From contig CAZOHI010000003.1 in the NCBI GenBank assembly GCA_964579695.1, positions 11,384 through 75,383 on the forward strand: a DNA stretch of 64,000 nucleotides, read 5' to 3'. This DNA is from an uncultured Caulobacter sp. Its GTDB lineage: Bacteria > Pseudomonadota > Alphaproteobacteria > Caulobacterales > Caulobacteraceae. Positions 9,799-32,056 of this stretch are shown here, piece after piece (position 1 is the first letter of the stretch; the number at the start of each line of letters is the position of its first letter). The position numbers and the translations under genes are program-made. The notes beneath the pieces are model-generated. The model searched no databases, was not told where the DNA came from, and saw only the letters and a program-made list of their open reading frames with translations.

Positions 9799-10015
9799 TC
9801 CTCGTTGCCCCATCTGCGCGCCAGCAGCGGTCGCTGGCGACCGGGCTAGAAGCTGACGGTCGGTGGCGCCCGCTTTTAGTCCACGGGCCGCTGGCCGCGT
9901 CCGACCCCATGGGGACGTTGGGAACGTCTGCATTTGGGTCACACCGCCAATGCCAGCGGGTTGATGCTTTGAGAGGTGCTGCTTGTGCCTTCTCCAGCCG
10001 CAATATGACGGCAGC

Positions 10016-10309
10016 CTAAATCCCCAAACGTTTGCCCATCTGCTTCGCTCTTATGACGACGGCGAATAACAGCAAGGGGATCCAGAAGTAAAAGGCGTTA
10101 AAGTCCTTAGTCACCCCCACCCAGATCATAAGAAAGAGGAATATAGTGAGAAATCCATCCGCAATCGCATTTAGATAGAATTTGAATTTTTCTCTTGGGG
10201 TAAGCAGGGTGTAGCGAACCACTACCGCATCACAAGCCGATTTAGCTTTCTGCAGCATTCCTCCCCCATCTTGTTGGCCGCCTTCCTGCTGTGAAGATCG
10301 CGGTCGCAC
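10016..10309 (-). CDS. Small AT-rich membrane protein
   Basis: Two hydrophobic segments (FLTIFLFLMIWVGV; FYFWIPLLLFAVVI); DNA visibly AT-richer than the flanks. True start may be a downstream ATG. Confidence 0.55.
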   Translation of the reverse strand: MRPRSSQQEGGQQDGGGMLQKAKSACDAVVVRYTLLTPREKFKFYLNAIADGFLTIFLFLMIWVGVTKDFNAFYFWIPLLLFAVVIRAKQMGKRLGI

Positions 10310-10409
10310 GCTATCGTGGCAAAATCCGGCCAGTTAGCAAAGACCAATGTCCGCGCTCCACCCTTTGCGGACTAGCAGCGGGTCGACTGCTGGGCCGACC
10401 CGCCGCCGA

Positions 10410-10476
10410 TCAGAGCTCTATCTGTTCAGACAGCTCGAGGGCGTCATCGACCTCGATGCCGAGGTAGCGGACGGCA
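10410..10476 (-). pseudogene. C-terminal stub of a small tyrosine recombinase
   Basis: Reads AVRYLGIEVDDALELSEQIEL*, the catalytic-Tyr tail (…LGH..IESTVRYLG.EVDDAL) of small XerC/D-like recombinases; cut off by the IS end at 10477. Confidence 0.75.
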
Positions 10477-10504
10477 TGATCTTCCCCCGAAAAAGTGGAC
10501 GGGG

Positions 10505-11365
10505 TTAAGCCGCTCTGCGCTCGGCGTCGGCTGGGCTGATGTAGCCGAGGGCCGAGTGCAGGCGGCGGGGATTGTAGAAGCCCTCGATGTAACCGAACAG
10601 ATCGCGTCGGGCCTGATCGCGCGTGGCGTAGACCCGGTGGTGGACGCGCTCGGTCTTGAGGGTATGGAAGAAGCTCTCCATCGGTGCGTTGTCCCAGCAG
10701 TCGCCCTTGCGGCTCATTGACGGGGTTATCCCCGCGCGAGCCAGGGCTGACCGGTAGGCCTCGGCGGCATACTGGATACCGCGGTCGGAGTGATGGATCA
10801 GGCCGGGCGCTGGCCGCTGGCGTTCGATGGCCATGTTGAGGGCGTCGAGCGCGATCTCGGTGTGCAGGGTCTGGCGCATGGACCAGCCGACAATCTTGCG
10901 GGTGTGCATGTCGAGGATGGCCGCGAGGTAGAGCCAGCCTTCGCCGGTGGGGATGTAGGTGAGGTCGGCCAGCCAGACCTGGTTCGGCGCTGCCGCGGTG
11001 AAGTTGCGGCCGAGCCTGTTGGGCGCGATCGGGTAGCCGTGGCGGCTGTCGGTGGTCCGGGTGCGCCTCGGCAGCGCCGCCAGGCCCCGCAGGCCGGCAC
11101 GGCGCATCAGCCGCTCGACGCGCGAGCGCCCGACCCGGCGGCCGTGGCCTCTCAGCACGGCGTGGACGCGGGGCGAGCCGTAGATCCCGCTGCTCTCGGC
11201 GTGGATCAGGCGGATATCCTCCAGCAGCGCCCGGTTGGCCGCCGCCCGCGGGCTCTCGGCCCGCTCACGCCAAGCGTAGTAACCGCTGGCCGACAGGCCC
11301 AGGACCGCGCACATCACCCTGACCGGCCAGACGCTGCGATGCTCATCGACGAACCCGAACTTCAT
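10505..11365 (-). CDS. IS3 transposase OrfB (DDE/rve domain)
   Basis: WLADLTY, HHSDRGIQY and DNAPMESFF motifs. Confidence 0.96.
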   Translation of the reverse strand: MKFGFVDEHRSVWPVRVMCAVLGLSASGYYAWRERAESPRAAANRALLEDIRLIHAESSGIYGSPRVHAVLRGHGRRVGRSRVERLMRRAGLRGLAALPRRTRTTDSRHGYPIAPNRLGRNFTAAAPNQVWLADLTYIPTGEGWLYLAAILDMHTRKIVGWSMRQTLHTEIALDALNMAIERQRPAPGLIHHSDRGIQYAAEAYRSALARAGITPSMSRKGDCWDNAPMESFFHTLKTERVHHRVYATRDQARRDLFGYIEGFYNPRRLHSALGYISPADAERRAA

Positions 11366-11676
11366 CGGGAGGCCGCTCCGAAGATGAGCGCGGCTTTTTT
11401 TAAGATGTCGCGCTCCATGCGCAGGCGGTCGTTCTCGCGCCGCAGCCGGCCCACCTCCGCGGCCAGATCAGACGGCGACGGGGCCGGCGCTTGCGTGTGG
11501 GGGCGCCTCGCCGTCCCCGTCGCCTGCGCCCCGAACTGCATCATCCATCGTCGAAGAACCGTCTCGTGCAGGCCCAACTCCCGGGCCACAGCCCCGACCG
11601 ACAGGCCGCTCGTGGCCACACGATCAACCGCCTCACGCTTGAAGGCCTCCGGAAACACCCGGCGCGTACCACTCAT
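11362..11676 (-). CDS. IS3 transposase OrfA (HTH)
   Basis: FKREAVDRV…VARELGLHETVLRRW; C-terminal leucine-zipper-like LRRENDRLRMERDILKKA. Confidence 0.94.
   Translation of the reverse strand: MSGTRRVFPEAFKREAVDRVATSGLSVGAVARELGLHETVLRRWMMQFGAQATGTARRPHTQAPAPSPSDLAAEVGRLRRENDRLRMERDILKKAALIFGAASR
11394..11401 (-). other. Programmed -1 frameshift site (A7G, containing A-AAA-AAG) of the IS3 element
   Basis: Minus strand TTA AAA AAA GCC; a -1 slip puts the reading in frame with the OrfB ATG at 11365. Confidence 0.8.
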
Positions 11677-11763
11677 CTGACACTCCTCCCTAGCTCCTCA
11701 GAGCTAGCATGGGTGTCCACTGAAACGAGGGAGGATCACCACCGTTTTGCTAGCTTCAACTCG

Positions 11764-14700
11764 ATGAACGGATCGCCGAAATTGACGGGTGGTGATTCGC
11801 CCCGACGGCGGGCGGCGGTGGCGCCGAGCCTGCGCCGCGCCGATCCGCCGCGTTTCGCTGAAATGAACCCCGAAGACTTCGAGGAGTTCTGCTGCGCCCT
11901 GCTGGACAAGGAGCCGGGCGTCGCCCGCGCCGATCTCTACAACTCCCGCTTCGACGCCCAGTATGGCATCGACGCTTTCGGTGAAACGGCGGACGGCCTC
12001 GTCGTGGTCTCCTCAAGCGGTACGCGAGCGTCGCCAAGGGGCAGATCGCCGAGTGGGGCGAAGACTTCCTGAAGCACTGGGATTTCCAGTGGCGCGACCA
12101 GAAGGTGGTCCGCTTCATTCTAGCCGTGACCGTGAATCTCAACTCGCGGGCCCGACTCGACGATATCAAGGCCGCCAATGCCCGGTTCGCAGAGTTCGGC
12201 ATCGCCTTCGAAGCCTGGGGGCCGCGCCAGCTTCAGGAACTCAGCCGGGGCGAACCAGGGATCGTCTCCCAGTTTCTAGGGCAGGAATGGGTGGGACGGA
12301 TATGCGGCGATCTGGAATCAGATCGCACCGCGGCGCGAGCCGCTGACGCCGCGCGCGACGACCTTGAAAACCGGCTGGCCGCCATGGCCAAGGCGTTGTC
12401 CGGCGAGGCCGAGCAGAAGCTCGAGACCGCGCGCCGGCGCCTGGAGCAGGGCGACGTGAGCGAGGTCGAAACTTTACTGCGGGAGCTGCGGACGTCTCCG
12501 ACCTGGGAAACCCTTGACGCCAGCGCCCGGGCCAGCGCCGTGCGTCTGCAGGGATCGGTGGCTCTGACACGCGGCGAGATTCGGATCGCCAAGGCCTTCG
12601 CCGCCGAGGCCGAAACGATCGCCAAGGCGTCCGAGCCGCGTCTGACCGCGCTCATCGCCATGAATGAGCAGGGTGCCGAGGCCGCCCTCGACGTTCTGGG
12701 AGAACCCACAAGTCCCCAGGGCCGCAGCCTGCGCGCCAGTCTGCTGCTCGTCACGGGCGAGACTGACGAGGCGGAAACGGTGCTGGATCAGATGGATCCC
12801 AAAGACCCCGAGGGCCTAAGGCTGCGCGCTTACCTCTGGCTGCTCCGCGGCGACCGGTCCGAAGCGCTCGCCTGGGCCGAAAAGGCCGACAAGGCCGATC
12901 CCGGTCATCCCGCGATCTCCCGCACGCTTGCGATGGCGCTCTACGCCTCGGCCCTCTCGCCCCTCGCGCCATCGCAGGTGGCGCTGAACCCCAATCCCCT
13001 GAACTGGGCGCTTGTTGGTCAGGACGATTTGTCCGTCGCCCGGCTGGAACAGGCTCTCGAGCGGTTCCTGCCCTTGGCCGACGGAGATCCCCTCCGCGCT
13101 AGCCGCGAACTAGACGCCGCCTGGGTTCTCGCCTGCCTGGCCAACCTGCCCTCTCGACGCAAGGACGCCGCCGCCCAGGCGCGACGCCTCCTCGCCGCCG
13201 ACCTGCGGGACATCCAGGCGATCGGGTGGGTCCTGATGCGCGACCTCGATGTCGATCTGGCGCTGTCGCGCCAGACGCTGCTCGACGCCCTCCGAGCCGG
13301 AACGCTTCAGTCCGGTGAGATTGTCGCCTTGGACTGGCTTACTGCGCCGCAGGACACACCGTCCCTTCTCGCGACGATCGAGACCGCCCTGGAAGAGGGC
13401 ATCGACGACGCCAATCTGGCGCAGGAGGTCGCCGGCGTCCGGGACCGTCTGCGCGGCGCACCAACAGGCGACGACATAGGCCCCGCCGTCCTCGAAACCG
13501 CACGCGACACTGGAGACTGGACCCAGGCCGAGGCGGACTTCGAAGCGGCGATCACCGCCGAACCGCCGCCGTTCACCGTCATCAGCCTAGCCTCAGCTCT
13601 CAGCGCCTCGGAACGATGGACGGTGCTCGACCGGCATCGTGACCGACTCCTCGGGTTCGCCACTGCCGTCGGCGTGCGGATCGCCGCCATCGCCGCCTAC
13701 AATGTCGGCGATCCCGTCGGGGCCCTCGCGATCCTGAAGGACGGCGCTCAGCGCTTTCCCGGCGGGACGCTGCCGTTCACCCTGCGTCGCGTCGAGGCTG
13801 AGTCCTTAGCCCAGGTGGGGTGACCCGCTCGCCGCCGTCAATCTGGCCGCCGCCTTGGCCAGCGACACCCAATCCGTTCAGGACGGACTGCGCGAAGCCC
13901 GGCTGCGCATCAACATCGGCGATCTGGAGGGCGCGCTGCCCAGGGTGCGCGCCGCGCTGGAGAGTGGCGACCTGGACGCCGAGGACGCCCTGGTCTGGTC
14001 GCAGACCTTCGCGGGCGATCAGATCGACCTGGCGCGAGACCTGTGGCGACATGCGGTCAGTCTGGACATCGACGACCAGACCGCGCTGAAGGCCTACGGG
14101 GTGAGCTTCAACCTAGGCTTGGAGAACGAGAAGGCGGATCTGTTCGCCGCCGTGGCGCGTCTCGCAGAGACGGGTCAGGGAGTGTGGAGCGTCTCCCTGG
14201 ACCAACTCAAGACCGAGATCGCCGAACGCCAGGAACGCGCCGCCGAGCTCGACGACCAATGGAAGCGGGGTGTCGCGCCCGTCCACCTCCTGGCCAAGGC
14301 AGCTGGAGCCAGCCTGGCAGAGATCTTCGACCTGCAGCCCGATCCGCACGGCCGCCGGCCGGTCTTCCTGCGATCGGGCTCGCGGGGAGACGCTTGGATC
14401 GACGAGCGTCCCATCGCGAAACGGCGATACTTCCTCGACGTCAGCGCCCTTCTCATCGCCGACCAGCTCGAGCTCCTGCCAGTTCTCGAAGGCCTTGGTC
14501 CGCGTCTTTGCATCGGCGCAGCCACCTCCCACGCCCTCCTGGAGATCGAACACGCGACCCGTCATCACCAGCCCGCCCAAGGCAAGGCCCCCCGGCGCGT
14601 CGTCGCTGAAATCGGGCGACGGATCGGGGTTGCGGCGCCCGTCGGGACACAGCGCGTGGCCCTGGAGAGCCAAGACGGAACGACAATGGATCTGAACCAA

Positions 14701-17700
14701 GTCCTCGCCGGGCTCGAGGCCGCGGAATCCGCTACGCCGGATGCTCTAAGCGCATGGCGGCTCGCCTTGGGCATCGATGTGCCGGCGACGACTTGGCCTC
14801 TGGCGGGTGTGCGGTTGGAGTTTTCGGAACGGTCCCTCGAAAGTCTGATCGACATCGGCGCGTTCGAGACCGTCGTCGAAACCTACGCCGTCTTCGTCGA
14901 TCCCATCTCGCTCCGAGCAGCCCAGAGGGCGGTGGAGGATCTTCAGCGCCGGGCGAGACTGACACTGGCGGTGGGGCGGCTGAGGCGGCATCTGGCTCGC
15001 AAGGCGGCGACCCATTACGACTTTGTCGGCGGCGGACGTCCGGATCTAAATCCCAACGACGACCCCTTCTCCATAACCGCGGTCGGGCGCGCCCTTGCGG
15101 AAGTCATGACCGCAGCAGGCGAAGACGAGGCAAACCGCCTCTGGCTGGAAGATCGTTACCTCAGCAGCTTTGGCGCATCCGGCCGAGCCCCGGTCGTCGG
15201 GATCCTCGACGTCCTGGCCGATCTCCGGGCCCAGCGTCGTATCGACGACGAGACCTACTTCGACCGCCTATTGCGATTGCGGGCGGGCAGCGCCCTCTTC
15301 CTTCCCCTGTCCGTCGAAGAGATCGAGCATCATCTGACGGCGGCGCCAATCCGCGAGGGCGCGGTGACGGAGACACCGGCGCTCGCGATCCTGCGCCGAA
15401 ACATGGGCCTGGCCCTCGTCTATGGTGAAAAGCTTCGCCTCGTTACAACCGGCGAGGCCGACGAACGTCCTCTGGAACTGCCGTTCCTGCTCCATCTGCG
15501 CCGGATCTGTGAAACGGCGGTCTTGTCGCGTTGGAACGGGCAGACCCCCGTGGAGACAGCCCGGGCGCAGTCCGACTGGATCTGGCGATCCCTGAGAGCC
15601 GAGACGTTGCCGCGCCCAAACGAAACGGATGCCATCGCCGGCGCGGAGACCGTCACGGCGCTCAACTTCGCAGGCCTCCTGACCGGAGCCTTCCACCTTC
15701 GATCAGCCGCCGGCGATCCCGGCTGGCGCCGTCGCGAACAGTACTTCGCTTGGCTGGGCGAGGCGGTGATCAAGGATCGCCTGGCGTTCGACCCTGTGGT
15801 TCGGGACCGCACCGTCGATCTGGCCCGCGACCTATTCCGCCTGGACCGCGCCGAAACCGACGACCTGGACGGCGAAGCGATAGAGAGCGTCCGAGCTCTG
15901 TCGCGAGTGATCGTCAGTCAACTGCCAGAGCCGATCCGCGATCTGGTGACCAGCGATCCCGACTTCATGGCCGACTTGGGCTTCACCGAGACGACGGCGA
16001 TCCTGCTGGATGAAAAGACCTTCGCGGCGAGTATCTTCTGGAGGGGCGTGGCCGACGCGATCAATGAAGGGCGCGGCGAGGCCGGCTTCAACGACAGCTC
16101 AGGTCGCGTCATCTTCACTCGCGCTGCAGACGATCCGCTCCGCCTGGATCTCTCCGGAGATGTCGAAACCCCGGCTCTGCTCGACCCGGATTTCGGACTG
16201 CTCAGCGAGACCGAGGCAGTCCGGCAGGCGAGCCTTGAAGCTCTATGGGCGGAATGCGACATCCCGCCGTCAGACCGCGAAGCGGTTGCCGCCGACATTC
16301 TTGGCCAGACCCTGCCGGAGCGTCGGATCAAGCGAGCCCGTGACGTTCGCTACCGTTCGATCCGGCTGTTTCTGGAAGGCTTGGCGACGACCCTGCAGTC
16401 GGGCGAGGATGTGGGAGCCGACGTGTTCACGCCGCCAGCCGCCGTCAACTGGCTCACCTATGTGCGCTGGCGTGATCCCGAGACCCGGATAGAGGCCGCT
16501 GCGGCGGCCTTGCGTCGCGACCTGTCTCCGGAAGCCGCCTTGGCGCGCATGGCGAGCCTGCCCTTTACCTTGCCAAAGGAGGCCTGGGCGGGCGTCGACC
16601 TTGCCCGTGTCCGAATGCTAACGCCTTTGGCGTGCATTCACCGGCTCCATGCTGCGCGTCAGGGTCATCTCCCCGGAGAATCAGAGAGCCTCGTCGATCA
16701 CGTTCGTGCGACCGCGGAGGCGGCGGCCCGGTTCGGGGGTCTGTTCGCGGCCCTTCTACGATGGGGCACCGACGCCTTCGCTCGTCAGCCGGGTTGGAAC
16801 GCGCTGACGCCGCTTCAGAAGCACGTAGTCACTTGGTGTTTCGCCGACCGGCTGACCGATCTGCTGGGAACGATCGGTCTGGAGCCCGAACCTGGGGCCG
16901 CCTTTTTCCGCACGCAGCGCGTCACAGCCTCGGGCGCGGCGCTGCTTGTATTGGAGCGCGGCTACGACGACTCTTCGCTGCATCCCAGCGCGGCCAGCCT
17001 CCCTCTTCTCCTCCTTGCCGGACTCGAGCACGGCCTTGGAGAAACGGCCCACGCCCTGGCCCTCCCGAGCGATGTGCTCGAAGCGGTGGCGGGGGCTCTG
17101 GAGATCAAGCCGGACGCCGTCGACCGTCGGCCGGTCGTGCGTCGCTACATGCCGCGCGACGAGGTCGGCCCCACCTGGATGGACCGCCCCTCGCCCGGGG
17201 TCCTGGCCGACGGGCACGATCTCGAGCAGATGCTCAGTGAGGCGATCACGGCTCTGGAAGCCTGCGCTGAGGATCCAAACGCCTGGGCGTTCCTATATGG
17301 CGTGGGGACCCCGGCCGTGTCGTCAGATCAGACCGGAAAGCTTGCGGTCGTCCTTCACGCCGTCGATCTCGCCGCAATCGCGGCCGGCATCCGACCCGAT
17401 CAGACGCTGAGGCACGTCGCGGAAGTCGCGGGGCGGCTTGCGGGCCAAGCCGCTGGGGCCGCCGTCATCGAGAAACTGCTGGACCTCGCACCGTCTTGGC
17501 TTGAGAGCAGCGAGGGCGCGCTCGAAGCCCGGTTCGACACACTCTTCGAAGCCGGAGCGGCGGCCTCGCGGTCCTATGACGATCAGGGGGCGGAGCGGTT
17601 CAGCCAGTTCCTGATGCACCTGATGATCCGGCTCCCGCAGGTCGCGGCGCGACTCCGCTCCGTGCTCGATGCGGTGATCGATCTCACCCCGGTTCGCGAC

Positions 17701-17745
17701 GCCGGCCCGTTTTGGAACGCGCTGAAGGCCGTGCGGGCTCTTTAA
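11764..17745 (+). pseudogene. Large defence-type protein: N-terminal Mrr-like PD-(D/E)xK nuclease + TPR-like repeats + PIN-like domain, split by two frameshifts
   Basis: Three ORF pieces join into ~1993 aa if one base is added at 12013/14 (TCC T[G]C AAG gives SCK) and one G is removed from GGGG at 13817-13820. Motifs: FEEFCCALL, QYGIDAF (REase); YFLDVSALL and LWLEDRYL (PIN-like). Confidence 0.7.
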
Positions 17746-17962
17746 ATAGTGGCGGCGTTGCTCAGGAGCAGGGAGGCGTAGGCACCAATCAGCCGTGGAT
17801 TTCCCAAGTCTGAGACGCGCCAGGACCTGACATGAAGTCGCCGGCGAGAGGCGGACCTCCGCGCGGCCGATTGAAGACCGCAGGGCAGGCGCGGGCCCCT
17901 CCCGGTTGCGACTCGACCTTGCGTTGAGGCAAACAGACGAGATTGAGGGGGGCGAAGCAGCC

Positions 17963-19858
17963 ATGGACGCGGACGATCACAAGGTCGAGGTGGTTCTCAA
18001 GGAGGACCGTCGTTTCATGGTGCCCCTTTACCAGCGCAAGTACCAGTGGGCCGAACACCGCCTCCTGCCCTTCTGGGAGGACGTCGCCGCCAAGGCGGCG
18101 GAAGTCCTCAGGGCCGAAAACCGGTTCGACCACTATATGGGCGCCCTGATCCTCGCTCCCGTCGACGTTGGATCGCAGATCGGCAAGACGCCGGTCGTGC
18201 AGGTGGTGGACGGCCAGCAACGGCTGACCACTTTCCAGCTCTTCCTCGCCGCCCTACGGGAGGTCGCCCGCAAGCGCGGCGAGAACGACTTCATCCCGCA
18301 CATCAATGGCTATCTGCACAATCCTCTGAAGAGCAAGGACGTCGATCCGCTCACCCGCTTCAAGCTCACCCCGACCCCCTCCGACCGCGACCTGTTCCAC
18401 GACCTGATGGAACGGCCTTACGACGAAGTCGTCGCGCGCTATCGCCACCTGTTCTGGGGGGCCTCCGTGCCCAAGAACACGCCCTTCCCCGCCTTCCGGG
18501 CCTACATTCTGTTCTTCCGCTGGATCGACGATTTTGCGGCCAACGGCCCAAGCGACGAGGAGTCGCTGGAGGAGCTTGGCGAAGCCGAAGCTGACGCCGG
18601 CGCGGGCGATGACGACCTAGTCGGCGAGCGGCTGGAGGCGCTGCTCAAGGCGTTGCTCGAACGCCTCAAGCTGGTGGTCATCAGCCTGGATGAGAACGAC
18701 GACGCCCAAGTGATTTTCGAGACCCTGAACTCCAAGGGCGAACCGCTGTTAGCCATGGATCTGGTCCGCAACAACATCTTTCACCGGGCCGAGAAACAGG
18801 AAGCTCAGGTGGAGGAACTATACAACGAGCTCTGGGACCCGCTCGACGAAGCGTGGTGGCGTGAAGCCGCGCCCAATGCGCGTCCGATGCGTCCGCGGAT
18901 CGACCATTTTCTCGCCAACACGCTGGCGGCGGAGACCGGCGGCGCGATCTCCATCCGGGAGCTCTACGCCGAGTACCGAAACTTCGCGATTCCGCGAGGA
19001 CGCCCTCGCTTCCCGGACGTCGCCGACGAATTGAAGCTGCTCGCCCGCTACGCCCCCCTCTACGAGACCCTAGAGGGCCGAAAGCAGGTCGATCCCGACC
19101 TGCACTGGTTCGGCCGAAAGATGGCCACGTGGCAGGTGACCACGGTCTATCCGGCGGCGCTGATGGTCGGACATCCGGACGTTCCGAGGGGCGGGCGTCT
19201 GGCGATCCTGCAGCTGCTCTATTCCTACCTGGTGCGACGCAGCCTGTGCGGGCTTACGACGAAGAACCTGAACAACGTCTTCCAGGGCCTAGCCGCACGC
19301 TTCCAGCGCGAGGGCGCCACTCTCGCGGCTTTCAACGACTACTTCGCCGGCCGCACCGGCGACAGCATCCGCTTCCCCGATGATGCGGAGCTGAGAGCCG
19401 GGGTGCTGACCACCAACGCCTACGCCATCTCACCTCAACCCCGTCTCGTCGACATCTTGTGGGAGCTGGAAACGGCGACCCGTTCGGCTCTCGCGGAAAC
19501 CCAGGCCCGACCTCCGGGGCTTTGGGTCGAGCACGTCATGCCGCAGACCTGGACCGAGGGATGGCCCTTCGCCGACGCGGACTACGCCAGGCCCTGGAGC
19601 GGCGAGCCACAGGCGGTTGCCCGCACGGCGGAGGTGAACACTATCGGCAACCTCACATTGCTAAGCGAGAGCCTCAACCGGTCGGCCGGCAACAAGAGCT
19701 TTGCGGAGAAGAGGGAGAAGTTCCAGGAGCACACCGGCCTGTTCCTGACCAAATGGTTCCTGACCCGCGACAGCTGGACGGAGGCGGACATCCGGGAGCG
19801 AGGTGAACACCTCGCCACGCTGGCGATACGGATCTGGCCGCCCCTCGGAGCGATCTGA
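17963..19858 (+). CDS. gmrSD: GmrSD-type modification-dependent (type IV) restriction endonuclease, DUF262 + DUF1524/HNH fusion
   Basis: PLYQRKYQW, VDGQQRLTT, IFETLN; C-terminal EHVMPQ…IGNLTLL…N.SAGNKSF. Confidence 0.9.
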   Translation: MDADDHKVEVVLKEDRRFMVPLYQRKYQWAEHRLLPFWEDVAAKAAEVLRAENRFDHYMGALILAPVDVGSQIGKTPVVQVVDGQQRLTTFQLFLAALREVARKRGENDFIPHINGYLHNPLKSKDVDPLTRFKLTPTPSDRDLFHDLMERPYDEVVARYRHLFWGASVPKNTPFPAFRAYILFFRWIDDFAANGPSDEESLEELGEAEADAGAGDDDLVGERLEALLKALLERLKLVVISLDENDDAQVIFETLNSKGEPLLAMDLVRNNIFHRAEKQEAQVEELYNELWDPLDEAWWREAAPNARPMRPRIDHFLANTLAAETGGAISIRELYAEYRNFAIPRGRPRFPDVADELKLLARYAPLYETLEGRKQVDPDLHWFGRKMATWQVTTVYPAALMVGHPDVPRGGRLAILQLLYSYLVRRSLCGLTTKNLNNVFQGLAARFQREGATLAAFNDYFAGRTGDSIRFPDDAELRAGVLTTNAYAISPQPRLVDILWELETATRSALAETQARPPGLWVEHVMPQTWTEGWPFADADYARPWSGEPQAVARTAEVNTIGNLTLLSESLNRSAGNKSFAEKREKFQEHTGLFLTKWFLTRDSWTEADIRERGEHLATLAIRIWPPLGAI

Positions 19859-20094
19859 CGGCCCGCGTCGGTACCCACGTCCCTTCCCCAGGACCGTGGA
19901 CATTGGTCGGAGCCGATCAGCACCTTGCACCAGCCAGCTCTGCGTCCGCGACGGACGCGTAGCGACCAACTTTCAGTGCGAACCGGAATCACCCCAGGCT
20001 CAAATGAGCGTCCGCCTCCACCTCTGAGTGCATCTGCGGCGCAGATCAGGACAGCGCCAGAAGCGGAAGTTGGCTCCCGGCCGAGAACCGGGCG

Positions 20095-21045
20095 CTAAGC
20101 CTCCTGTTCCACAGTCAAGTCGTGGAAGGCTTCCCGGATAGACAGCGCGCGGCGGGGCCAGGTGGCCAGCTCTTCATCGATGTCGAGCCGGAGCTTCTTG
20201 AGCAGGAATGTCCCGGGCTTTTGGCGGATCTGATACAGCTTAACCTTTCGGTGGCGAGGCTCCAGCGCCCGCGCCACGGTGTAGGCAGCCGCGGCCGGGC
20301 ACCGCAGGCCGAACACGACCTCCTCGAGCTCAAGGGGCGAATCCTGTAGTCCGCGCTCACCGATCAGCCGCCATTCCCGCTCGTATCGCCAGTCCCCGGC
20401 CTTCTTGAGCAGGACCGCGGCATCGACCTTCTCTGCGGCACCGGCCTCGTTTGCCAGCATCGCGGCGACCAAGCTGGCCTTGACTGTGAGCGTCCCGCCA
20501 TAGCGAACTTTGTTCAGCTTCAGGTCGTCCGGTGCCGAATAGCCAAAGCAAACGCCACGATGCTGGTCGCCGTAGTGACTCCACATCAGCGGACAATTGG
20601 GGCGTTCGGCCAGGGAAACAACGCCGCGGTCGTAGCGGCGCAGTAGTTCGCGCTCGACCTCATGGCCAAGCACCATCTGGAGCGGATCATTCGCCTCGAT
20701 ATCCGGGTGGGTGGACCAGTAACGGGCCTCCTCGATCGCCCGTTCGGCGCTGCGACGGGCCACCCGTGAGATGTGCTCGCTGGCGCGCGCGCCTTTGGTG
20801 CGGAAGTCTCGGGCGGCCGCAGTCATTTCGTCCGTGACACGGCGTTCCACCAGAGTTCGCAGCATCTGCTCCAAGTCCTCAGCCGGCAGATCCGCGTCGA
20901 GGCTTGGCTGGCTATCCAGGGGATCATTGAACGTCGAGGGATCAGCGTAGAACAGCTCGTCCTCGATAAGACTCCTGAGGCTCTGAACGCTGAAGTGCCG
21001 GTACTTGTAGACTCGCGCTGGCGCGATCTTCCTCTTCTTCGCCAT
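20095..21045 (-). CDS. DUF2971 domain protein
   Basis: YKYR, FADPSTFNDPLD, LMWSHYGDQHRGVC, K..DWRYEREWR; start reassigned to ATG 21045. Confidence 0.85.
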   Translation of the reverse strand: MAKKRKIAPARVYKYRHFSVQSLRSLIEDELFYADPSTFNDPLDSQPSLDADLPAEDLEQMLRTLVERRVTDEMTAAARDFRTKGARASEHISRVARRSAERAIEEARYWSTHPDIEANDPLQMVLGHEVERELLRRYDRGVVSLAERPNCPLMWSHYGDQHRGVCFGYSAPDDLKLNKVRYGGTLTVKASLVAAMLANEAGAAEKVDAAVLLKKAGDWRYEREWRLIGERGLQDSPLELEEVVFGLRCPAAAAYTVARALEPRHRKVKLYQIRQKPGTFLLKKLRLDIDEELATWPRRALSIREAFHDLTVEQEA

Positions 21046-21216
21046 CCTCTGCCCCCGCCGCCTGGTCGCGGTCAGGCTAAAGGCGCGCGACTGAAAGGTC
21101 ACGCCGATGCAAGCCGGGTCGTCCAAGCGGCTCTGTTCCAGGTTATGGACGCGTCATGCGCCGGCTGGTGAACCGCTACGAGGAACTGACGCTAAACGCC
21201 CGCTCGGCGCTGGCCC

Positions 21217-21801: not shown

Positions 21802-21811
21802 CCAGGCTGTC

Positions 21812-22984: not shown

Positions 22985-24357
22985 GGCCTTGCACTGGCAA
23001 GGCGTGCGACGAAGGAGTCCGGTCCCAATGACTTGCGGAACACACGCCACTCGGCGGCATGCCGGCCCAACATTTCACGCAACTGATGCTCCACCACCGC
23101 CGGGTCTCCGTCCAATGCTTCCGCGGTCTCGCGTGCAGCGCGGCGAAGGGACCGCGCGTGTAGCGGCGATTCTGCGAACTCAGCCAAGTGGTCCATGTGC
23201 AGAACTCCGGCCACGGCGTAGGCGCGCAGCTTGGAGGTGAGGCCATTGAATCCCTTGGCCACGCCGTCCTCCAGGCGGTTGGCGGAGAGGTTCTCCCAGA
23301 TGTAGGTTTCGGCCGGCTCGTCGATCCCGGCGGTGAACATGCTCATCCGCCGGAGCATGCAAGCCGCGCAGATGCCGCACTGGCGCCGTCGCCCATTGAC
23401 CGAGCAATGGCGCGACTGTTGCCAACAAGATCGGGTGTCAGTCCAAGTCGGCACAGCCTGGAGCGCTCGCGCGGCGTGCAACGTCTCGCCTTTGGTGCTC
23501 CAGAGCCGCGGATATTCGTAACGGACATCCTTGTCACTAATGGCGTGCAGCAGACGTTCCATGCGCCGCGAGAATGTCGGATGGACGCGGTAGTCGGGAT
23601 AGATCTGCCCGCTGACCGCCAGCATCGGGCCGAACGCACCTTGCCCACTCTCGGTTACCATGATGCGCGAAACTCCGGCCATCAAGGCCGCGATGCCGGT
23701 CACGGCGGCGAACTTGAAGCCGCGCGAGCGGGCCGAGGTCTCGCCTTGCCGTGGGCGCTTGAGCTTGTACGGGACGACGGCGAAGGGGACGCGCTTCTTC
23801 TTGCTGCGGGGTCGATCGACCCCGCCGACGCCCAGACGCACGGCCACAAGGCCGCCAGCACCTTCGTCGGCGGCGACCAGGGCACGAACAGCGCGGGAAT
23901 CCAGGCCATCGCTGTAGGGCATGATTACCCGCGCGCCGGACTCGAGGCTAAGGCTACCCTGGGCGACCCGCGGGACGTCCCGCCGCCGCTGCGCAAAGCT
24001 GAAGACCCAGACGTCGCCGGTCAGATAGCCTAAGGCCTCCTCCAGCGCCGCGCGCACGTTCGGACGGTTCCAGAGCACCGGGTCATGGACGGCGATCCGC
24101 ACATCGAACCGCCGGCTCCAGCTGTATTCCGGTCGGCGCCGGGTGACATCGCAGAACTCGGCCGCCGCTGCGATAACCAGCAAGTCGACCAGCGCCGGGT
24201 TCCAGTCAGCAAAGAAATAGGATTCCAGACCTTGAGTATCGAGCTGCAGCACCTCGCCGATCGTTGCGTAGATCGCGCCGTCGCGCATCACCGCGCCTGG
24301 TTCTAGGGCATCGAGGGTCAGGCTCGGCATTTCGATGTTCAGACTAATGGCGTTCAT
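22981..24357 (-). CDS. QueC-like (QatC-like) PP-loop ATPase with an N-terminal extension domain
   Basis: PP-loop variant PYSDGLDS; SRGFKF; Zn-site SCW…CGICAACMLRR; N-terminal DLLVIAAA…WSRRFDVRIAV.DP..W…LGYLTGD.W.F as in QatC-type proteins. Confidence 0.85.
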   Translation of the reverse strand: MNAISLNIEMPSLTLDALEPGAVMRDGAIYATIGEVLQLDTQGLESYFFADWNPALVDLLVIAAAAEFCDVTRRRPEYSWSRRFDVRIAVHDPVLWNRPNVRAALEEALGYLTGDVWVFSFAQRRRDVPRVAQGSLSLESGARVIMPYSDGLDSRAVRALVAADEGAGGLVAVRLGVGGVDRPRSKKKRVPFAVVPYKLKRPRQGETSARSRGFKFAAVTGIAALMAGVSRIMVTESGQGAFGPMLAVSGQIYPDYRVHPTFSRRMERLLHAISDKDVRYEYPRLWSTKGETLHAARALQAVPTWTDTRSCWQQSRHCSVNGRRRQCGICAACMLRRMSMFTAGIDEPAETYIWENLSANRLEDGVAKGFNGLTSKLRAYAVAGVLHMDHLAEFAESPLHARSLRRAARETAEALDGDPAVVEHQLREMLGRHAAEWRVFRKSLGPDSFVARLASARP

Positions 24358-24917
24358 AGCGGCGGCCCCTCGTCCAACCCAGAGCGATTGACCTTCAGCG
24401 CCAGGCGGCGGACGCCCTCACCGGCAGCGATCCCGGCCGCCAGTCGATCGGTGCCGATGCTGGGGATGGCGCTGTGCAGCTTAGTCCGAAGCCGGCCGGC
24501 ATCCGGCGAGCCTTCGCCCAGGTAGTGCTCCTCCATCTGCCGTGACCGGTGCAGGGCGCGCTCATCGAGGGTCGCCTTGATGGCCGCCTCATAGGCGGCC
24601 GGCCCAACCTGACCGTCACGGGCGACGTCGCGGGCCTGCGCCGCGAACAGGGCTTCCACCGGATTCTGTGCCAAAACCTGCAAGCGCCGGGTTTCGGCCG
24701 CGGCCACTTCAGGAAACAGGTTGCCGCGGTTGTCGTCGCCGAGCGCTGCGCGGATCTCCTTGGCGAACGCAGGCCGGATCGCTCCCCATTCGTCGAGCAG
24801 CGCGGGCTGAAACGCCTCCGCCGTTTCGACCACCGAGTGCGCGAGGTTCGCGGCGATCTTGGCCAGCGCCTTCCAGGGCCGGCTCATCTTCATGGTCTTG
24901 TACGGTCCGTCGCTCAT
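24354..24917 (-). CDS. Hypothetical protein, first gene of the QueC operon
   Basis: 187 aa starting MSDGPYK; GGAGG RBS upstream; ATGA overlap with the QueC-like gene. Confidence 0.75.
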   Translation of the reverse strand: MSDGPYKTMKMSRPWKALAKIAANLAHSVVETAEAFQPALLDEWGAIRPAFAKEIRAALGDDNRGNLFPEVAAAETRRLQVLAQNPVEALFAAQARDVARDGQVGPAAYEAAIKATLDERALHRSRQMEEHYLGEGSPDAGRLRTKLHSAIPSIGTDRLAAGIAAGEGVRRLALKVNRSGLDEGPPL

Positions 24918-27841: not shown

Positions 27842-28533
27842 CCGATGGTTCGACCCTGTCATTTGGCCTGGCTGACTTTGCCGAGCGCCTGCGCAAGGCC
27901 GCGGGTGTCCTCGACCTCACCGTGGAGGAGCGTCCGGAACTGGCGAGTTCGACGTTCAACGGTGGCTCAAGCAAATCCACGTCATTAAGTCCGAGCGACC
28001 TTCCGGCTGAATGCCATGCCATTCGCATTGATCGGTTCAACATCGTGCTCAGCGTGCTTCCCGAGATCGCAACGCTCGAGGCGGTGCGCGAGACCTTGCG
28101 GCGTTGCCGCAACCAGTGCGTCGTCGCGCGCTCCTATCTTGGCACCAATGAAACACTTGACCTGCAGCTGATGCTGTTGGGGCCGCGCGCGAGTGAGCGT
28201 CAGGAAGCCTGGCGCGCGTTGGCTCTGATGGTCGAGCGAGACGATCGAGTGGCGCGCAAGCTGGCCTGGCTGCGCCCCGAGGACAAGCAGCGGGATGAGG
28301 AAAGCTTCGCCGACTTCCTCAAGCGGACGTTCCTCGCCCGACCGTGGATTCACGACGAGGGCAAATTCGAAGACGCGGCCCTCGATGAACTGAGCGGCAG
28401 CGGCGCGCCGAAGTCCGGATTGCCGCGAACACTGGCGGACGATTGGGAGCGGACAGCGCTCGACGAGAAGAAATCACCGGATGATATTGTCACGGCGCTG
28501 GTAAAGGCCTGGGAACGAAGAGGCCAAGCATGA
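27838..28533 (+). CDS. lmuC: Lamassu/ABC-3C middle component
   Basis: 231 aa between effector and ATPase, ATGA overlaps on both sides; ERDDRVARKLAW motif typical of ABC-3C middle components. Confidence 0.7.
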   Translation: MTDGSTLSFGLADFAERLRKAAGVLDLTVEERPELASSTFNGGSSKSTSLSPSDLPAECHAIRIDRFNIVLSVLPEIATLEAVRETLRRCRNQCVVARSYLGTNETLDLQLMLLGPRASERQEAWRALALMVERDDRVARKLAWLRPEDKQRDEESFADFLKRTFLARPWIHDEGKFEDAALDELSGSGAPKSGLPRTLADDWERTALDEKKSPDDIVTALVKAWERRGQA

Positions 28534-31500
28534 GCGAGATCTTCCTTTCCCGCATCGTGATCCACGATTTCCGTACCTTCGGTGACTTCGACATCGAGGT
28601 GCCGGCAACGCCAGGGCTCGTACTCCTCACCGGAACCAATGGCCTCGGCAAAAGCAGCTTCTTCGACGCGATCGAATGGGGTCTCACGAACAAAATCCGC
28701 CGCTTCGAGCCCTATCTTCAAAAGGGCAAGAAGAAGATCGTCGAAAAGGACTATCTTACGCGTCGCGGGGCGGAGCCGGACTCGCACCATGTGTCCCTTA
28801 CCTTCTCCGGGCATGGTCCGATCGAGCGCGGCGCCGGCAGCGGTACGCCGATGGCAGACATCATTGCGCAGCTTGCGCGCCCAGATCGCCGCACGATCAA
28901 CGACCTCGGCACCTATCTCGCCCTCACCCATTTTCTCGGTCAGGCGGCCCAACAGCGGTTCACGAGCCGTGATCCGCGGGACCAATGGCAGGCGCTCAAA
29001 GGGCCGAGCGGCATCGATCGGCTCGAGCGAGTTCGCGCAGGGCTTCGCGGCCGCCCGACGGTGACGGCATTCACCCGGCGCATCGAGCAGCAGCAGGCGA
29101 GCGTAGCGACGCTCGAGCGTCAGATCGCCGATTGGCAGGGGTGGGTGGCGCGACTCGAACGGTTGCGCTCCGCCGCTCGCGCGACCGGCGTTCTGACTAC
29201 CGCTGAGGTCTCGGAACGCATTGACGAGCTCGAAACCGACCTGCTGCAGCTGACATCGGGTCAGCCTCTCGCCATTGTCGGCGAGGATGTTGGACGGCGT
29301 CTCGCAGCGGTCGGCGATCGGATCGGCGATGCGCTGCGGTCGACGGGCGAGCGCAAGACCGCATTGGAGGCCTTGATGGCGCTGGCCGGACAATTTGCGA
29401 TCAGCCAGGCGGACAGCCGCCTCGACACTCCCCATCTCGTCAGATTGCGAAGCGAAGTGAGCGATGCTCACGCGCGGCTCAATCGTGCGTCGCCCCTCGT
29501 GAGTTCGGCGCACGATGCCGTCGCAGCGCAGCAGGCTGCCATTGCCACGATCGATCAGAACATCGCGCTCCTTGAAGCGGGTCTGACCGACCTCGCTCGC
29601 CGAGCGCAGTTGGCCGGACTGATCGCCGCCGACGAGGCGGACCGCAGCACGTTGGTCGAAGCAATAGCCGCCCACCGTGCCGCGCTTGAGACTGCGGACG
29701 GTGCCATCGCAGCGCATGGCGATGCGGCCGCTGAGGTGGCACGCCTGCGGAGCCTTGCCAGTTCCGCTAAGGCACTGGAAGAATCGCTGACCCATCATCT
29801 CGAGCTCGAAGCTCAGGCCGGGGCCGCCACGGCCGCGCTCGCTCAGGGTCGCGAGGTCGCCGAACGAGCAGCAGCGGAACTGGCACCACTCGCAAGCCAA
29901 CTGGCGGACATCGACCGCCGCATCTCGGACGCCGAGCATCAACGCGCGGAAGCCGATCGCCACGCGACAGCCATCAGCGCCGGTCTTTCGCAGCTGGCAA
30001 GCCATCTACACGAAGACGACACTGAGTGCCCGGTGTGCAGCACGTCATTCGAGCCTGGCGTGCTCAAAGCACTCGCCGAGGCCGCGGCTGCAGGCAGCGA
30101 CGCCCGGCTGGCCCAGGCCGATGAGGCCCTCGAGGGACTGAGGACTGCGCGCGTCGATCTGGCTGGCAGAACTGCCAACCTTAGATCGCAAGTCGCGGCG
30201 GTCGAGGAGCTCGAACGAGCGGCCACCGCAGCTACCCGCGCGGCGACCGATGCCCGCGCAGCGATCGCCCGAACGCTGGATGCGAGCGCCGATGGTGATC
30301 TCACAGGCCTCGCGGCAACGCGCAGGCGCGACGCTGACACCGCGCTTGCAAAGGCGGAGGCGACGCTCACTACGCTGGCTGCGAACGCAGCTGCCGCGAC
30401 CGAGCAGCGTTCGTCGGCGGCCAACGACCTTGATGATCTGATCGGACGCGAGAGCCACCTCGGCACGCGTCTGGCGCAGTTTCAGGCTGAGGACACCGCG
30501 TGCGCGGACCGGATCTCTGCTCGCAACTTGTCGAATGCCACGATCACCGACCTCGAGAGCCGGCTAACCTCGGCGCGCGGGCAGAGCGAGGCGGCTCGAG
30601 CCCGCTTGGTGGAACTTACCGATGCGGCGAACGCCGCGGGCGCTGCGGCGCAAAGCGAGCAAGCGGCGGTTGAGGCGGCGCAGCGCGAGCTAGCAGTGGC
30701 GGAACTGAACCGCGCCAATGCGGAGCAGGCGGCGCGTCAGACCCAGCTCCGTTGGACCGAGGCGGGGTTGCCGGACAGCCCGAGCCAGGCGGCCTATGAT
30801 CGGGCTATTGCGGCACTCGACGCGACGCTCGTCGGGTTGCGGTCGATGGCCGAGCGGCAGCTGGTTCTTGCCCGTGATAATGAGGATGCGCTCCTGCAAA
30901 CCGAGATGGACGACATTACTGCATCGATGCATCTTGCCGCTGGCGATGAGGGCATCGGCGATCCGGTCGTCTATCTCGCAACACTAGAGGCGAAGCTCGA
31001 CGCTGCGAAGGCGGCGGTTAAGCTCACTACGGCCACACGTAACGCGGTCAAACGTTATTCGGAAGATCTGCAAGCGCAGGCCGACGACTTTTCCAGCCGC
31101 GTGCTCGATCCGCTCAACACGGTGATCGACGACTTCAACGAGGCGATGCTGAGCACGCCAGGCGAGAGCATTCAGTTTAAGGCCGATACCCGGGTCGACG
31201 CCACGACCTTCGGCATGGCGCTGCGCTATCGCGATAAGGTCGAGGACGCCATCGAGAGCAGGAAGGATTTGCCGCCACAGGTGGTGTTGAGTGAGGGCCA
31301 GCTCGCCGCCAATGGTTTCAGCATCCTTTGTGCAGCCAGCACAGCCTATCCCTGGTCACGCTGGCGCGCGTTGCTGCTCGATGATCCGCTGCAGCACAAT
31401 GACATCATCCACACTGCCGCCTTTGTCGACGTGATGCGCAATATGGTGGAGCTGAACGGCTACCAGCTACTCATGTCGAGTCATGATCGTGGCGAAAGCG

Positions 31501-31664
31501 ACTTTATCGCGCGCAAGTTCGACGCGGCCGGCCTTCCGTGCACCACGGTTCTCCTCACTGCGCCGTCAGATAAGGGTGTTGTTTGGGTGGCGCCCGATCA
31601 TAACCAAGCGGCGGCGCGCGCTTTGCGTGGTGGCAACGGGAGTTCGAGCGCCAGCCACGCATGA
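28530..31664 (+). CDS. lmuB: Rad50/SbcC-like SMC ABC ATPase of Lamassu
   Basis: Walker A GTNGLGKS, long coiled coils, central CPVC zinc hook (about aa 500 of 1044), LSEGQ signature, LLLDDP, SSHD. Confidence 0.88.
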   Translation: MSEIFLSRIVIHDFRTFGDFDIEVPATPGLVLLTGTNGLGKSSFFDAIEWGLTNKIRRFEPYLQKGKKKIVEKDYLTRRGAEPDSHHVSLTFSGHGPIERGAGSGTPMADIIAQLARPDRRTINDLGTYLALTHFLGQAAQQRFTSRDPRDQWQALKGPSGIDRLERVRAGLRGRPTVTAFTRRIEQQQASVATLERQIADWQGWVARLERLRSAARATGVLTTAEVSERIDELETDLLQLTSGQPLAIVGEDVGRRLAAVGDRIGDALRSTGERKTALEALMALAGQFAISQADSRLDTPHLVRLRSEVSDAHARLNRASPLVSSAHDAVAAQQAAIATIDQNIALLEAGLTDLARRAQLAGLIAADEADRSTLVEAIAAHRAALETADGAIAAHGDAAAEVARLRSLASSAKALEESLTHHLELEAQAGAATAALAQGREVAERAAAELAPLASQLADIDRRISDAEHQRAEADRHATAISAGLSQLASHLHEDDTECPVCSTSFEPGVLKALAEAAAAGSDARLAQADEALEGLRTARVDLAGRTANLRSQVAAVEELERAATAATRAATDARAAIARTLDASADGDLTGLAATRRRDADTALAKAEATLTTLAANAAAATEQRSSAANDLDDLIGRESHLGTRLAQFQAEDTACADRISARNLSNATITDLESRLTSARGQSEAARARLVELTDAANAAGAAAQSEQAAVEAAQRELAVAELNRANAEQAARQTQLRWTEAGLPDSPSQAAYDRAIAALDATLVGLRSMAERQLVLARDNEDALLQTEMDDITASMHLAAGDEGIGDPVVYLATLEAKLDAAKAAVKLTTATRNAVKRYSEDLQAQADDFSSRVLDPLNTVIDDFNEAMLSTPGESIQFKADTRVDATTFGMALRYRDKVEDAIESRKDLPPQVVLSEGQLAANGFSILCAASTAYPWSRWRALLLDDPLQHNDIIHTAAFVDVMRNMVELNGYQLLMSSHDRGESDFIARKFDAAGLPCTTVLLTAPSDKGVVWVAPDHNQAAARALRGGNGSSSASHA

Positions 31665-31979
31665 AGACCTAGAGGCACTGCAAACAGTTGACGACAACGC
31701 TCACGGTCTAAGGGCGTCTCGCGAACGCTCGTTTCGAGTCACTGACCCTCGCAGGAGTTCGACCCGCTCAGGATTCAACGCGTCGCCTTGCTGCGGACCT
31801 TCCCAATGTCTCTATTGAGTCAGGTCCGGCCGAAGGTCACGGCAGCGCTGCTTGGAAAGCAGACATTCTGTCTGTAACCGTATGGAGCCTCAGGAATTCG
31901 CCGCTGCACGAGGGCGAGATCGGGTCGGCCCCTTCTGACCGAGACTGACCGGAACGGCCTTCGGACAGCCCCTTTTAGA

Positions 31980-32010: not shown

Positions 32011-32056
32011 CAGTCGATCCGGTTTCAGAGGGGACCGAAGCCGGAAAGCCTCACTC

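Follow-up and report, generated by a model that had tools for sequence, protein, structure and literature searches.

Probable short recombination sites and the remnant of a small tyrosine recombinase in a probable tRNA-Thr island of an uncultured Caulobacter

The attC sites of integrons are imperfect palindromes of 57-141 bp with R''/L''...L'/R' boxes, in which structure rather than sequence is conserved, and cassette arrays that have lost their integrase are called CALINs. In the Cre/loxP and Flp/FRT systems, one recombinase acts on inverted arms around an asymmetric spacer that sets direction; Cre and Flp have an N-terminal core-binding domain, use one type of site and serve plasmid or phage maintenance. 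To our knowledge, integrons and transposons aside, there is little explanation of how accessory and defence genes enter and leave island 'hotspots'. The plasmid dif (pdif) modules of Acinetobacter, which hold one or a few accessory genes and are shuffled between replicons, are bounded by 28-bp sites (11-6-11) in alternating orientation that depend on the host XerC/XerD (PMC6449649, PMC13141974).

Here we analyzed a stretch of 64,000 nucleotides (the window) from an uncultured Caulobacter sp. A first-pass annotation had noted seven copies of a GCGGACRTT-like motif behind cargo genes and proposed that they are attC-like sites by which a family of small tyrosine recombinases collects defence genes. 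No published description of an integron-like system of this small recombinase was found.

The motif and the sites of the recombinase family

All seven copies of the motif (beginning at 9852, 9923, 10346, 19896, 20007, 31793 and 31859) are present on the strands reported, each 38-195 nt past the stop codon of the preceding gene on the same strand, and the hairpins at 10349-72, 9914-28 and 31848-62 are real as well. So is the 12/13 match between 10342 and, inverted, 19896 (GACCAATGTCC[G/A]C), a sequence that occurs nowhere else in the 3.49-Mb assembly. The string GGTGGAG(C)GCGGAC is indeed common to 20003-20026 and 10349-62, but GGTGG-N2-3-GCGGAC occurs 29 times genome-wide. Compared with shuffled DNA, GCGGACRTT alone is not beyond chance: with at most one mismatch it was counted 52 times in the window versus 42.4 +/- 7.5 in shuffles, and a count of 52 or more arose in 12 of 100 shuffles. 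Within the intergenic DNA of the island (2,214 nt), nine copies were counted where ~1.1 would be expected (nominal p 2e-5); when every 9-mer with a single degenerate position was searched for, an equally extreme word turned up in ~30% of dinucleotide shuffles, and therefore the bare 9-mer does not beat chance. The window-wide count and the result of this wider search are in line with copies that are unrelated GC-rich words belonging to no element.

The proposed link between the motif and a small tyrosine recombinase, of which a stub remains at 10410-10476, is supported by site models from other genomes. The recombinase family is widespread (species representatives contain 587 loci or more), is ~208 aa long, comprises the catalytic domain only and is Xer-like by sequence, with XerA (4a8e) as the closest solved structure. 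Its sites are 22-24 bp long, lox/dif-like and conserved in sequence, with inverted arms of 6-8 bp around an asymmetric GCGGAC-type centre; the full site in this genus reads GCGCCAnn-GCKGAC-rTTGGCGC. Judged by sequence, GCGGACRTT spans the asymmetric GCGGAC centre of such a site and runs into the beginning of one arm. Rather than the folded attC-like palindromes first envisaged, these are short sites of a duplex type, and in this genus they usually form a tandem pair of ~50 bp (a junction) a few to ~200 nt 3' of a gene. In related genomes, junctions share one orientation and are found on the opposite strand from the recombinase gene, around which they cluster; the DNA between successive junctions forms modules with one to three genes each. 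The cargo of congeneric arrays is mixed (TetR, LysR, OsmC, PhyH, DUF302, FRG and a serine recombinase), and the collection of defence genes is not a general property of the family.

The models used for scoring include a 34-nt model from 68 beta/gamma-proteobacterial loci, a single-site model of the genus, and a 52-nt composite model built from congeners only. The window was excluded when the models that score it were built; because some recombinase-adjacent sites entered model building, only the more distant sites and those of the window serve as independent tests. Conservation of the sites, their clustering with the recombinase, their co-orientation and homology breakpoints within them were all observed. 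In the 68 loci, enrichment of the motif is confined to two places: directly past the recombinase stop codon (25 matches/200 nt versus ~2 per 100-nt bin) and, in inverted orientation, 70-170 nt before the start codon (17 matches). Near recombinase genes, 15 sites above 16 bits were found in 92 kb (~0.3 expected), 14 of which are co-oriented. The strict pattern GCGCCANNNGCNGNCNTTGG gave 39 clustered matches in seven genomes versus 2 for the reversed control, and 20 of the 37 congener matches have a recombinase gene no more than 30 kb away. Orientation differs by subfamily, a point against the array reading: sites are inverted around the gene in beta/gamma-proteobacteria, but the majority of loci in this genus have direct sites.

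In the test suggested by the first-pass annotation, homology between related genomes was seen to break inside the sites. Two loci in the same MAG (L020 and L038) share 99.7% identity over 743 bp, and at either end this homology stops precisely where arm and centre meet. A 3.2-kb stretch common to genomes G114 and G005 (88% identity) ends immediately after ATGCGCC inside a site, and the repeats of L131/L134 and L133 begin at or within sites. Homology between recombinase loci is confined to 0.7-0.95 kb, and copies or fragments of the recombinase are present in 36 of 121 genomes of the genus. Breaks inside the sites do not suit terminators, REP-like elements or regulatory palindromes that simply happen to be common 3' of genes. 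The elements do lie 3' of stop codons and some are GC-rich palindromes (e.g. 9820-9838); however, they have no T-run, number only about five in the genome and cluster with recombinase genes, which makes this explanation very improbable.

The same comparisons bear on a second alternative, in which the 0.75-kb recombinase unit is a selfish, IS-like mini-element with a preference for certain insertion sequences. The junctions would then be ends, scars or targets of this element, and the genes between them bystanders rather than mobilised cassettes. The unit is the only segment common to most loci, facing site pairs of 60-100 bp without a recombinase exist, cargo is rarely common between loci, and homologues elsewhere of the window's cargo (GmrSD and DUF2971 homologues) have no such sites. 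On the other hand, junctions are co-oriented and regularly 3' of genes over 10-30 kb, their tandem two-site structure is unlike simple element ends, and the G114/G005 breakpoint joins non-recombinase DNA at a site. We regard the mini-element as unlikely.

Sites and cargo between 9.4 and 20.1 kb

With these models, the motif copies at 9852, 9923, 10346 and, weakly, 19896 are supported, but 20007 is doubtful and 31793 and 31859 are unsupported; stronger sites had been overlooked at 20052-20103, 9816-9841, 9898-9922 and 17815-17866. At the left, a small cargo gene (9535..9798, + strand) has paralogues in the same genome at C1:2533-2852 and C83:7112-7316 (82%), and the C1 paralogue also carries GCGCCAGGAGCGGCC ~24 nt past its stop codon. 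The stop codon of the cargo gene lies 18 nt before junction J1 (9816..9867, + strand), which reads GCGCCA-GCA-GCGGTC-GCTGGCGA and then CGGGCT-AGAA-GCTGAC-GGTCGGTG; the motif copy at 9852-60 is the centre of its second site. J1 scores 22.6 bits with the composite model, the third best of 6.97 million genome positions, and 17.3 bits with the single-site model. It is followed by two back-to-back single sites with one arm in common (9898..9944, TCCGACC-CCATGG-GGACGTT GGG AACGTCT-GCATTT-GGGTCAC), which include the copy at 9923-31 and the hairpin at 9914-28. The + copy (9891-9924) reaches 18.7 bits with the 34-nt model, by which only four genome positions score above 18, and for the - copy the genus models give 13.2 and 17.1 bits; GGACGTTGGGAACG of this pair is also found 3' of the L103/L104 recombinase genes.

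An orphan small membrane-protein gene taken from the ORF list (10016..10309, - strand) occupies lower-GC DNA between two minus-strand sites and is a candidate single-gene cassette; it has no Pfam match and no homologue among 5.8 billion proteins. Next comes the site downstream of the recombinase stub (10342..10365, - strand, GGGTGG-AGC-GCGGAC-ATTGGTC), to which the copy at 10346-54 belongs. Its position, orientation and sequence are those of GGGTGG-N3-GCGGNYATTG after the L103/L104 genes, a pattern unique in the genome, and the outer nAGCGGACATTGG sites of L016, L017, L044 and L050 resemble it.

Further to the right, a large TPR/HTH-upstream-of-PIN gene (11764..17745, + strand; Pfam TPR, HTH_upst_double_PIN) is followed after 70 nt by a probable, decayed junction, J1.5 (17815..17866, + strand), with GCGCCA-GGA-CCTGAC-ATGAAGTC and then GCCGGCGAGAGGCGGACCTCCGCG; it scores 16.8 bits with the composite model, and only 10 genome positions exceed 15. 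Next is a GmrSD-type restriction endonuclease gene (17906..19858, + strand; Pfam GmrSD_N 1e-31, GmrSD_C 1e-27). The half-site-like element 32 nt past its stop codon, corresponding to the copy at 19896 (19890..19912, + strand, GTGGAC-ATTGGTCG), has a non-canonical left arm and a background score with the site models, and the copy at 20007 forms a doubtful site (20003..20026, - strand, AGGTGG-AG-GCGGAC-GCTC). The best junction of the window, J2 (20052..20103, + strand), consists of GCGCCA-GAA-GCGGAA-GTTGGCTC and CGGCCG-AGAA-CCGGGC-GCTAAGCC. It scores 35.2 bits with the composite model, the second best in the genome, and 20.8 bits with the single-site model, and plain BLAST ties 20046-20101 to junctions of genomes G140 and G114 (85% and 81% identity).

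Only five composite junctions above 20 bits exist in the 3.5-Mb genome (6.97 million positions), and two of them, J1 and J2, lie in intergenic gaps of the window. In two island gaps by the stub, models from other genomes thus place two of the five top-scoring composite junctions of the genome, together with one of its four top-scoring single sites of the general family; ~0.003 would be expected there. Chance is thereby already refuted for 9816-9944, 10342-65 and 20052-20103, but stands for 31793 and 31859; as an account of all the copies it is extremely improbable.

The junctions at 9816-9867 and 20052-20103, the weaker one at 17815-17866 and the single sites at 9898-9944 and 10342-10365 lead us to read 9.4-20.1 kb as a decayed array. 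This region is probably the dead remnant of a gene-cassette array of the small recombinase, with the motif forming part of its sites. Its cargo is the small paralogous gene, the orphan membrane ORF, the large TPR/PIN gene and GmrSD. The degenerate sites at 17815, 19890 and 20003 count against this reading. The window's modules have no DNA-level counterpart in any relative, and their cargo showed neither a recombination product nor a circle nor a presence/absence polymorphism.

The array had been drawn as far as 31867, which is not borne out: no supported site was detected in 20.1-31.9 kb, and nothing links this region to the array. The last two motif copies (31793-801 and 31859-67, + strand) have negative scores with the 34-nt model, and 31665-32209 gave no match with the genus single-site model (>9 bits) or the composite model (>5 bits). 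The sole hint nearby is a 10.0-bit match to the 34-nt model at 31800-31833 (- strand).

The recombinase remnant and its island

The array is lodged in an anti-phage island that was probably integrated at a tRNA-Thr gene. The left border of the island is a tRNA-Thr (TGT) gene (5496..5571, + strand; ARAGORN, Rfam tRNA 70 bits), adjoined by a P4-type island integrase of 455 aa (5730..7097, + strand; Pfam Arm-DNA-bind_3, Phage_int_M, Phage_integrase). A direct repeat of the tRNA 3' end (at least 12 nt) was looked for downstream and not detected, and relatives have no orthologue of the right flank. The P4-type integrase is distinct from the recombinase to which the sites belong.

The stub of the small recombinase (10410..10476, - strand) consists of the last 21 codons (AVRYLGIEVDDALELSEQIEL) and the stop codon, and includes the family C-terminus ...TVRYLGIEVDDAL... 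with the catalytic Tyr. In tblastn searches with full-length members, it showed 74-78% identity to L001 and L002 over the last 23 aa, and no other sequence of the family was found in the assembly. The stub peptide also matches 382 plasmid records annotated as tyrosine recombinase or integrase. Family-type sites lie beside it, both at 10342-65, as after the L103/L104 genes, and at 9898-9944. The catalytic domain (R, K, HxxR, H, Y) is incomplete; residues 1-185 are absent from the whole assembly, and the recombinase gene is therefore dead. It is truncated by an IS3-family insertion sequence (10477..11738, - strand; rve, HTH_21, HTH_Tnp_1) with 24-nt terminal inverted repeats (TGATC...GATCA), TG...CA ends and two ORFs (HTH, then rve DDE). 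No intact 3-4 bp target duplication flanks this element, and its unequal flanking triplets (GCA versus CCA) fit loss of the remaining recombinase sequence through a deletion or IS-IS recombination. Partial IS3 copies were also seen at the ends of contigs C44 and C83.

In a working array, the family recombinase would cut and rejoin like sites; modules would thereby exit as circles and re-enter at other sites, and so would the 0.75-kb recombinase unit. Since IS3 destroyed its recombinase, the array in the window is dead, and self-driven rearrangement should no longer be possible in this genome. We tentatively put forward a broader reading, which the sequence comparisons make a real possibility: an integron-independent cassette platform common in Proteobacteria, in which a minimal ~208-aa recombinase acting on tandem short duplex sites may excise, capture and reorder modules, including GmrSD-like anti-phage genes, and so build and reshuffle islands, with the window as a fossil. 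For gene traffic at islands, a minimal recombinase dedicated to short sites of its own would offer a mechanism open to testing. For the window, the gain is a corrected map of the real motif sites, of the module borders and of the array's dead state.

Comparison with known systems

The first-pass annotation had set the array apart from classical integrons, and this holds. An integron or CALIN, in which an IntI-type integrase recombines attC sites that are folded as single strands, shares with the window's system the site after each gene, the co-orientation of the sites and a tyrosine recombinase gene on the opposite strand; in both, the array may outlast its recombinase, as it has here. However, full-length family members score only 22-32 bits against TIGR02249 and NF011946 (cut-offs 265 and 435), and a catalytic domain of 208 aa leaves no space for the IntI extra domain. 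The sites, at 22-24 bp, are short and conserved in sequence, paired in tandem rather than palindromic, and most likely recognized as duplex DNA, in contrast to the structure-conserved palindromes of attC; moreover, the recombinase gene can sit within the array as a 0.75-kb unit. We give the integron explanation practically no weight.

Like pdif modules, the modules here are bounded by short two-arm sites with a central spacer, and the recombinase family is Xer-like. Unlike in pdif modules, the arms are 6-8 nt (GCGCCA/TGGCGC), 14 of 15 sites are co-oriented and the sites are in tandem; they also cluster with dedicated 208-aa recombinase genes, whereas pdif modules use the host XerC/XerD. With Cre/loxP and Flp/FRT, the sites share inverted arms around an asymmetric centre, whereas the family described here has no N-terminal core-binding domain and is associated with gene arrays rather than with plasmid or phage maintenance.

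Recombinase-linked sites and the bare 9-mer

Two conserved arms around an asymmetric centre make up a site that is linked to a dedicated tyrosine recombinase, of which the window retains only a stub. The seven GCGGACRTT-like 9-mers that the first-pass annotation took for integron-like cassette sites at 9850-31867, together with its three hairpins and inverted 12/13 match, are all present as described. As a bare 9-mer, GCGGACRTT is unremarkable. With up to one mismatch it has 52 matches in the window versus 42.4 +/- 7.5 in shuffles, so that the window alone shows no excess over background, the result named in advance by that annotation as speaking against its proposal. Within the island intergenic DNA (2,214 nt) the 9-mer is nominally enriched (9 matches, 1.1 expected); when all comparable patterns are scanned, an equally extreme one is found in approximately 30% of dinucleotide shuffles. 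A de novo search of the same intergenic DNA for over-represented 9-mers was dominated by CCG repeats and was not significant.

A scan of species-representative genomes yielded at least 587 loci of the recombinase, 80 of which were fetched and 68 used for the motif count. The only Pfam domain of the family is Phage_integrase, i.e., the catalytic domain alone; its best NCBIfam matches are Xer-like and far under their cut-offs, and the nearest solved structure is XerA (4a8e). Around the 68 genes, the 9-mer is enriched at just two places: in coding-strand orientation in the 200 nt that follow the stop (25 matches; background about 2 per 100 nt) and in inverted form at 70-170 nt upstream of the start codon (17 matches). 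A 34-nt site model refined on these flanks (core YCGRCCMnnAGCrGnCrtT) detects a site after 42 of the 68 genes and before 33, with many more within 3 kb. Site orientation around the gene is inverted in beta/gamma-proteobacteria and direct in most loci of the window's genus. The recombinase coding sequence itself holds ATCGGCCCCAAGCCGCCGTTCAAGCC (codons for IIGPKPPFK), which reaches 21-26 bits under the site models and lies near position 1555 in L091-L100 and 551 nt before the stop in six other loci (L006, L009, L015, L027, L029, and L039); this stretch could be due to chance or be an internal binding site. A mixed 'B-type' site model was contaminated by it and served as a side check only.

Intact or broken recombinase copies occur in 36 of 121 congeneric genomes, some of which have several within 5-40 kb. 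Their flanks yield a near-palindromic site, GCGCCAnn-GCKGAC-rTTGGCGC, according to which GCGGACRTT is the asymmetric centre plus three right-arm bases; CCAATGTCCGC is the same element on the opposite strand. A second site (consensus CCTCCAGGAAC-nCGAC-GTTCAGTG) normally follows the first at fixed spacing, and the two form a junction of about 50 bp. In 92 kb around recombinase genes of four congeners, 15 sites exceeded 16 bits where about 0.3 were expected; 14 of them share one orientation, opposite in strand to the recombinase, and nearly all are intergenic, trailing a gene by 9-140 nt. For the strict pattern GCGCCANNNGCNGNCNTTGG, 39 matches were counted in seven genomes, versus 2 for the reversed control; the matches are clustered, and of the 37 in congeners, 20 have a recombinase gene within 30 kb.

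Junctions and cargo in the window

Site and junction models built without the window sequence were applied to it. Of 6.97 million genome positions, just five exceed 20 bits with the 52-nt junction model, among them 20052-20103 (J2, 35.2 bits) and 9816-9867 (J1, 22.6 bits); a weaker, probable junction at 17815-17866 (16.8 bits) is within the genome's top ten. Each of the three occupies intergenic DNA, is oriented on the + strand, and follows a + strand gene, namely an ORF ending at 9798, a large TPR/PIN-linked gene (11764-17745), and GmrSD (17906-19858). Together with the minus-strand position of the recombinase stub, this layout matches that of the congener arrays, and plain BLAST ties 20046-20101 to junctions of two congeners (G140 and G114). 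Under the general family model, 9891-9924 scores 18.7 bits and is one of just four genome positions above 18. This site adjoins an inverted copy (9917-9944; 13.2 and 17.1 bits), whose GGACGTTGGGAACG is also present after the recombinase genes of two other loci (L103 and L104). The sequence at 10342-65 after the stub, GGGTGG-AGC-GCGGAC-ATTGGTC, matches the second site after the same two genes, and GGGTGG-N3-GCGGNYRTT occurs nowhere else in the genome.

Among the 9-mers first noted, the copy at 9852 forms the centre of the second J1 site, and those at 9923 and 10346 are real sites. The copy at 19896 has the centre and one arm and lacks the other arm, leaving its status uncertain; that at 20007 is doubtful, with 29 similar words genome-wide, and those at 31793 and 31859 found no support. 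By eye, 31780-31825 resembles the back-to-back pair at 9898-9944, a likeness supported by no model. The array had been drawn as far as 31867; supported sites are absent from 20.1-31.9 kb, and therefore the DUF2971, QueC-like, and ABC-3C modules are not assignable to it. Nor is the cargo specifically defence, as had been proposed: congener arrays carry a mixture of genes, including TetR, LysR, FRG, PhyH, OsmC, DUF302, a large serine recombinase, and DUF6119.

No close DNA relatives of the window's cargo were found. Homologues of DUF2971 and of GmrSD have no sites or recombinase nearby, and the small ORF at 10016-10309 has no homologue at all. Two paralogues of the segment 9393-9798, which spans the end of gene 8217-9458 and the small gene 9535-9798, lie elsewhere in the genome at 82% (C1:2533-2950 and C83:7112-7400); a site-like GCGCCAGGAGCGGCC follows the C1 copy, and AATGCGCCGGCC follows the C83 copy. 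Three more composite junctions lie elsewhere in the genome without any recombinase gene (C14:4267-4318, C4:113966-114017, and C4:115377-115428); the two on C4, co-oriented and 1.4 kb apart, look like an orphan cassette.

The truncated recombinase and its island

Translated, the stub at 10410-10476(-) reads AVRYLGIEVDDALELSEQIEL up to its stop codon. Proteins with a matching C-terminus, annotated as tyrosine recombinase/integrase, occur on 382 plasmid records, and identity to the final 23 residues of two full-length family members (L001 and L002, 207-208 aa) is 74-78%. The stub is adjoined by an IS3 element (10477-11738) with inverted ends of 24 nt, and the other 185 recombinase codons, expected beyond the IS3, are absent from the whole assembly. 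Because the IS3 flanks, GCA and CCA, form no matching target duplication, a deletion or IS-IS exchange probably took out the rest of the gene. Partial IS3 copies are found at two contig ends (C44:1-308 and C83:7633-7941), the latter about 230 nt beyond the paralogue of the small gene 9535-9798. Given these copies and the absent target duplication, IS-IS recombination may have reshaped the window, C44, and C83 loci. Since no intact recombinase is present, the system is inert in this genome, where five junctions remain.

The genome is 69.6% GC (3.49 Mb, 145 contigs), and the window is likewise high-GC DNA, of which 5.5-32 kb looks like a genomic island. It opens with tRNA-Thr (5496-5571), the sole Rfam match in the search, followed by a P4-type integrase (5730-7097), several small genes, the IS3 element, and the large TPR/PIN-linked gene. 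Beyond GmrSD lie the DUF2971 gene (20095-21126, -), a PIN/HTH-M78/QueC-like operon (21217-24917, -), the ABC-3C system (25319-31664), and an ECF sigma factor gene (32210-32749, -). A search across the window for attR with 10- to 12-mers of the tRNA-Thr 3' end gave nothing convincing, and no direct repeat of this end was detected that would mark the right end of the tRNA-Thr/P4-type integrase island. A synteny search for the right border among 40 relatives gave no orthologues, only paralogues and a local repeat. The ECF gene is flanked by a 68-nt direct repeat, 90% identical (31978-32045 and 32886-32953), with related copies on C4 and C95; it could represent a locally repeated element or regulatory DNA of ECF/TonB clusters.

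Proposed mobility of the recombinase unit and of modules

Homology between recombinase loci is confined to 0.7-0.95 kb, comprising the gene and the inner half-sites. In the clearest case, two loci of the same MAG (L020 and L038) share 99.7% identity over 743 bp, with limits immediately behind the arm CGGCCA at one end and immediately ahead of GGGTCG at the other; beyond these limits, centres and outer arms differ. This is the outcome that would be expected of a crossover at the arm/centre boundary. In beta/gamma-proteobacteria, facing site pairs without a recombinase, 60-100 bp apart, lie near recombinase genes (L043 4702-4793, L030 4727-4830, L055 5591-5682, and others) and look like miniature (MITE-like) forms derived from the 0.75-kb unit.

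On a rival, less probable reading, only this 0.75-kb unit would be mobile, with the intervening genes as bystanders. Breakpoints of other shared DNA also fall in the sites: 3.2 kb common to two congeners (G114 and G005) at 88% identity ends directly after ATGCGCC inside a site, and repeats common to L131 and L134, as well as repeats within L133, start at or inside sites. Sites are co-oriented, and homology breaks inside them. We favor a mechanism in which the recombinase would exchange strands in the centre of like sites; such exchange between co-oriented sites could release modules, and the recombinase unit itself, as circles that would then insert at other places. By lying in tandem, the paired sites may provide two specificities. 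Full-text searches turned up no account of such a recombinase together with its sites; the nearest analogue in the literature is the dif module (PMC6449649, PMC13141974).
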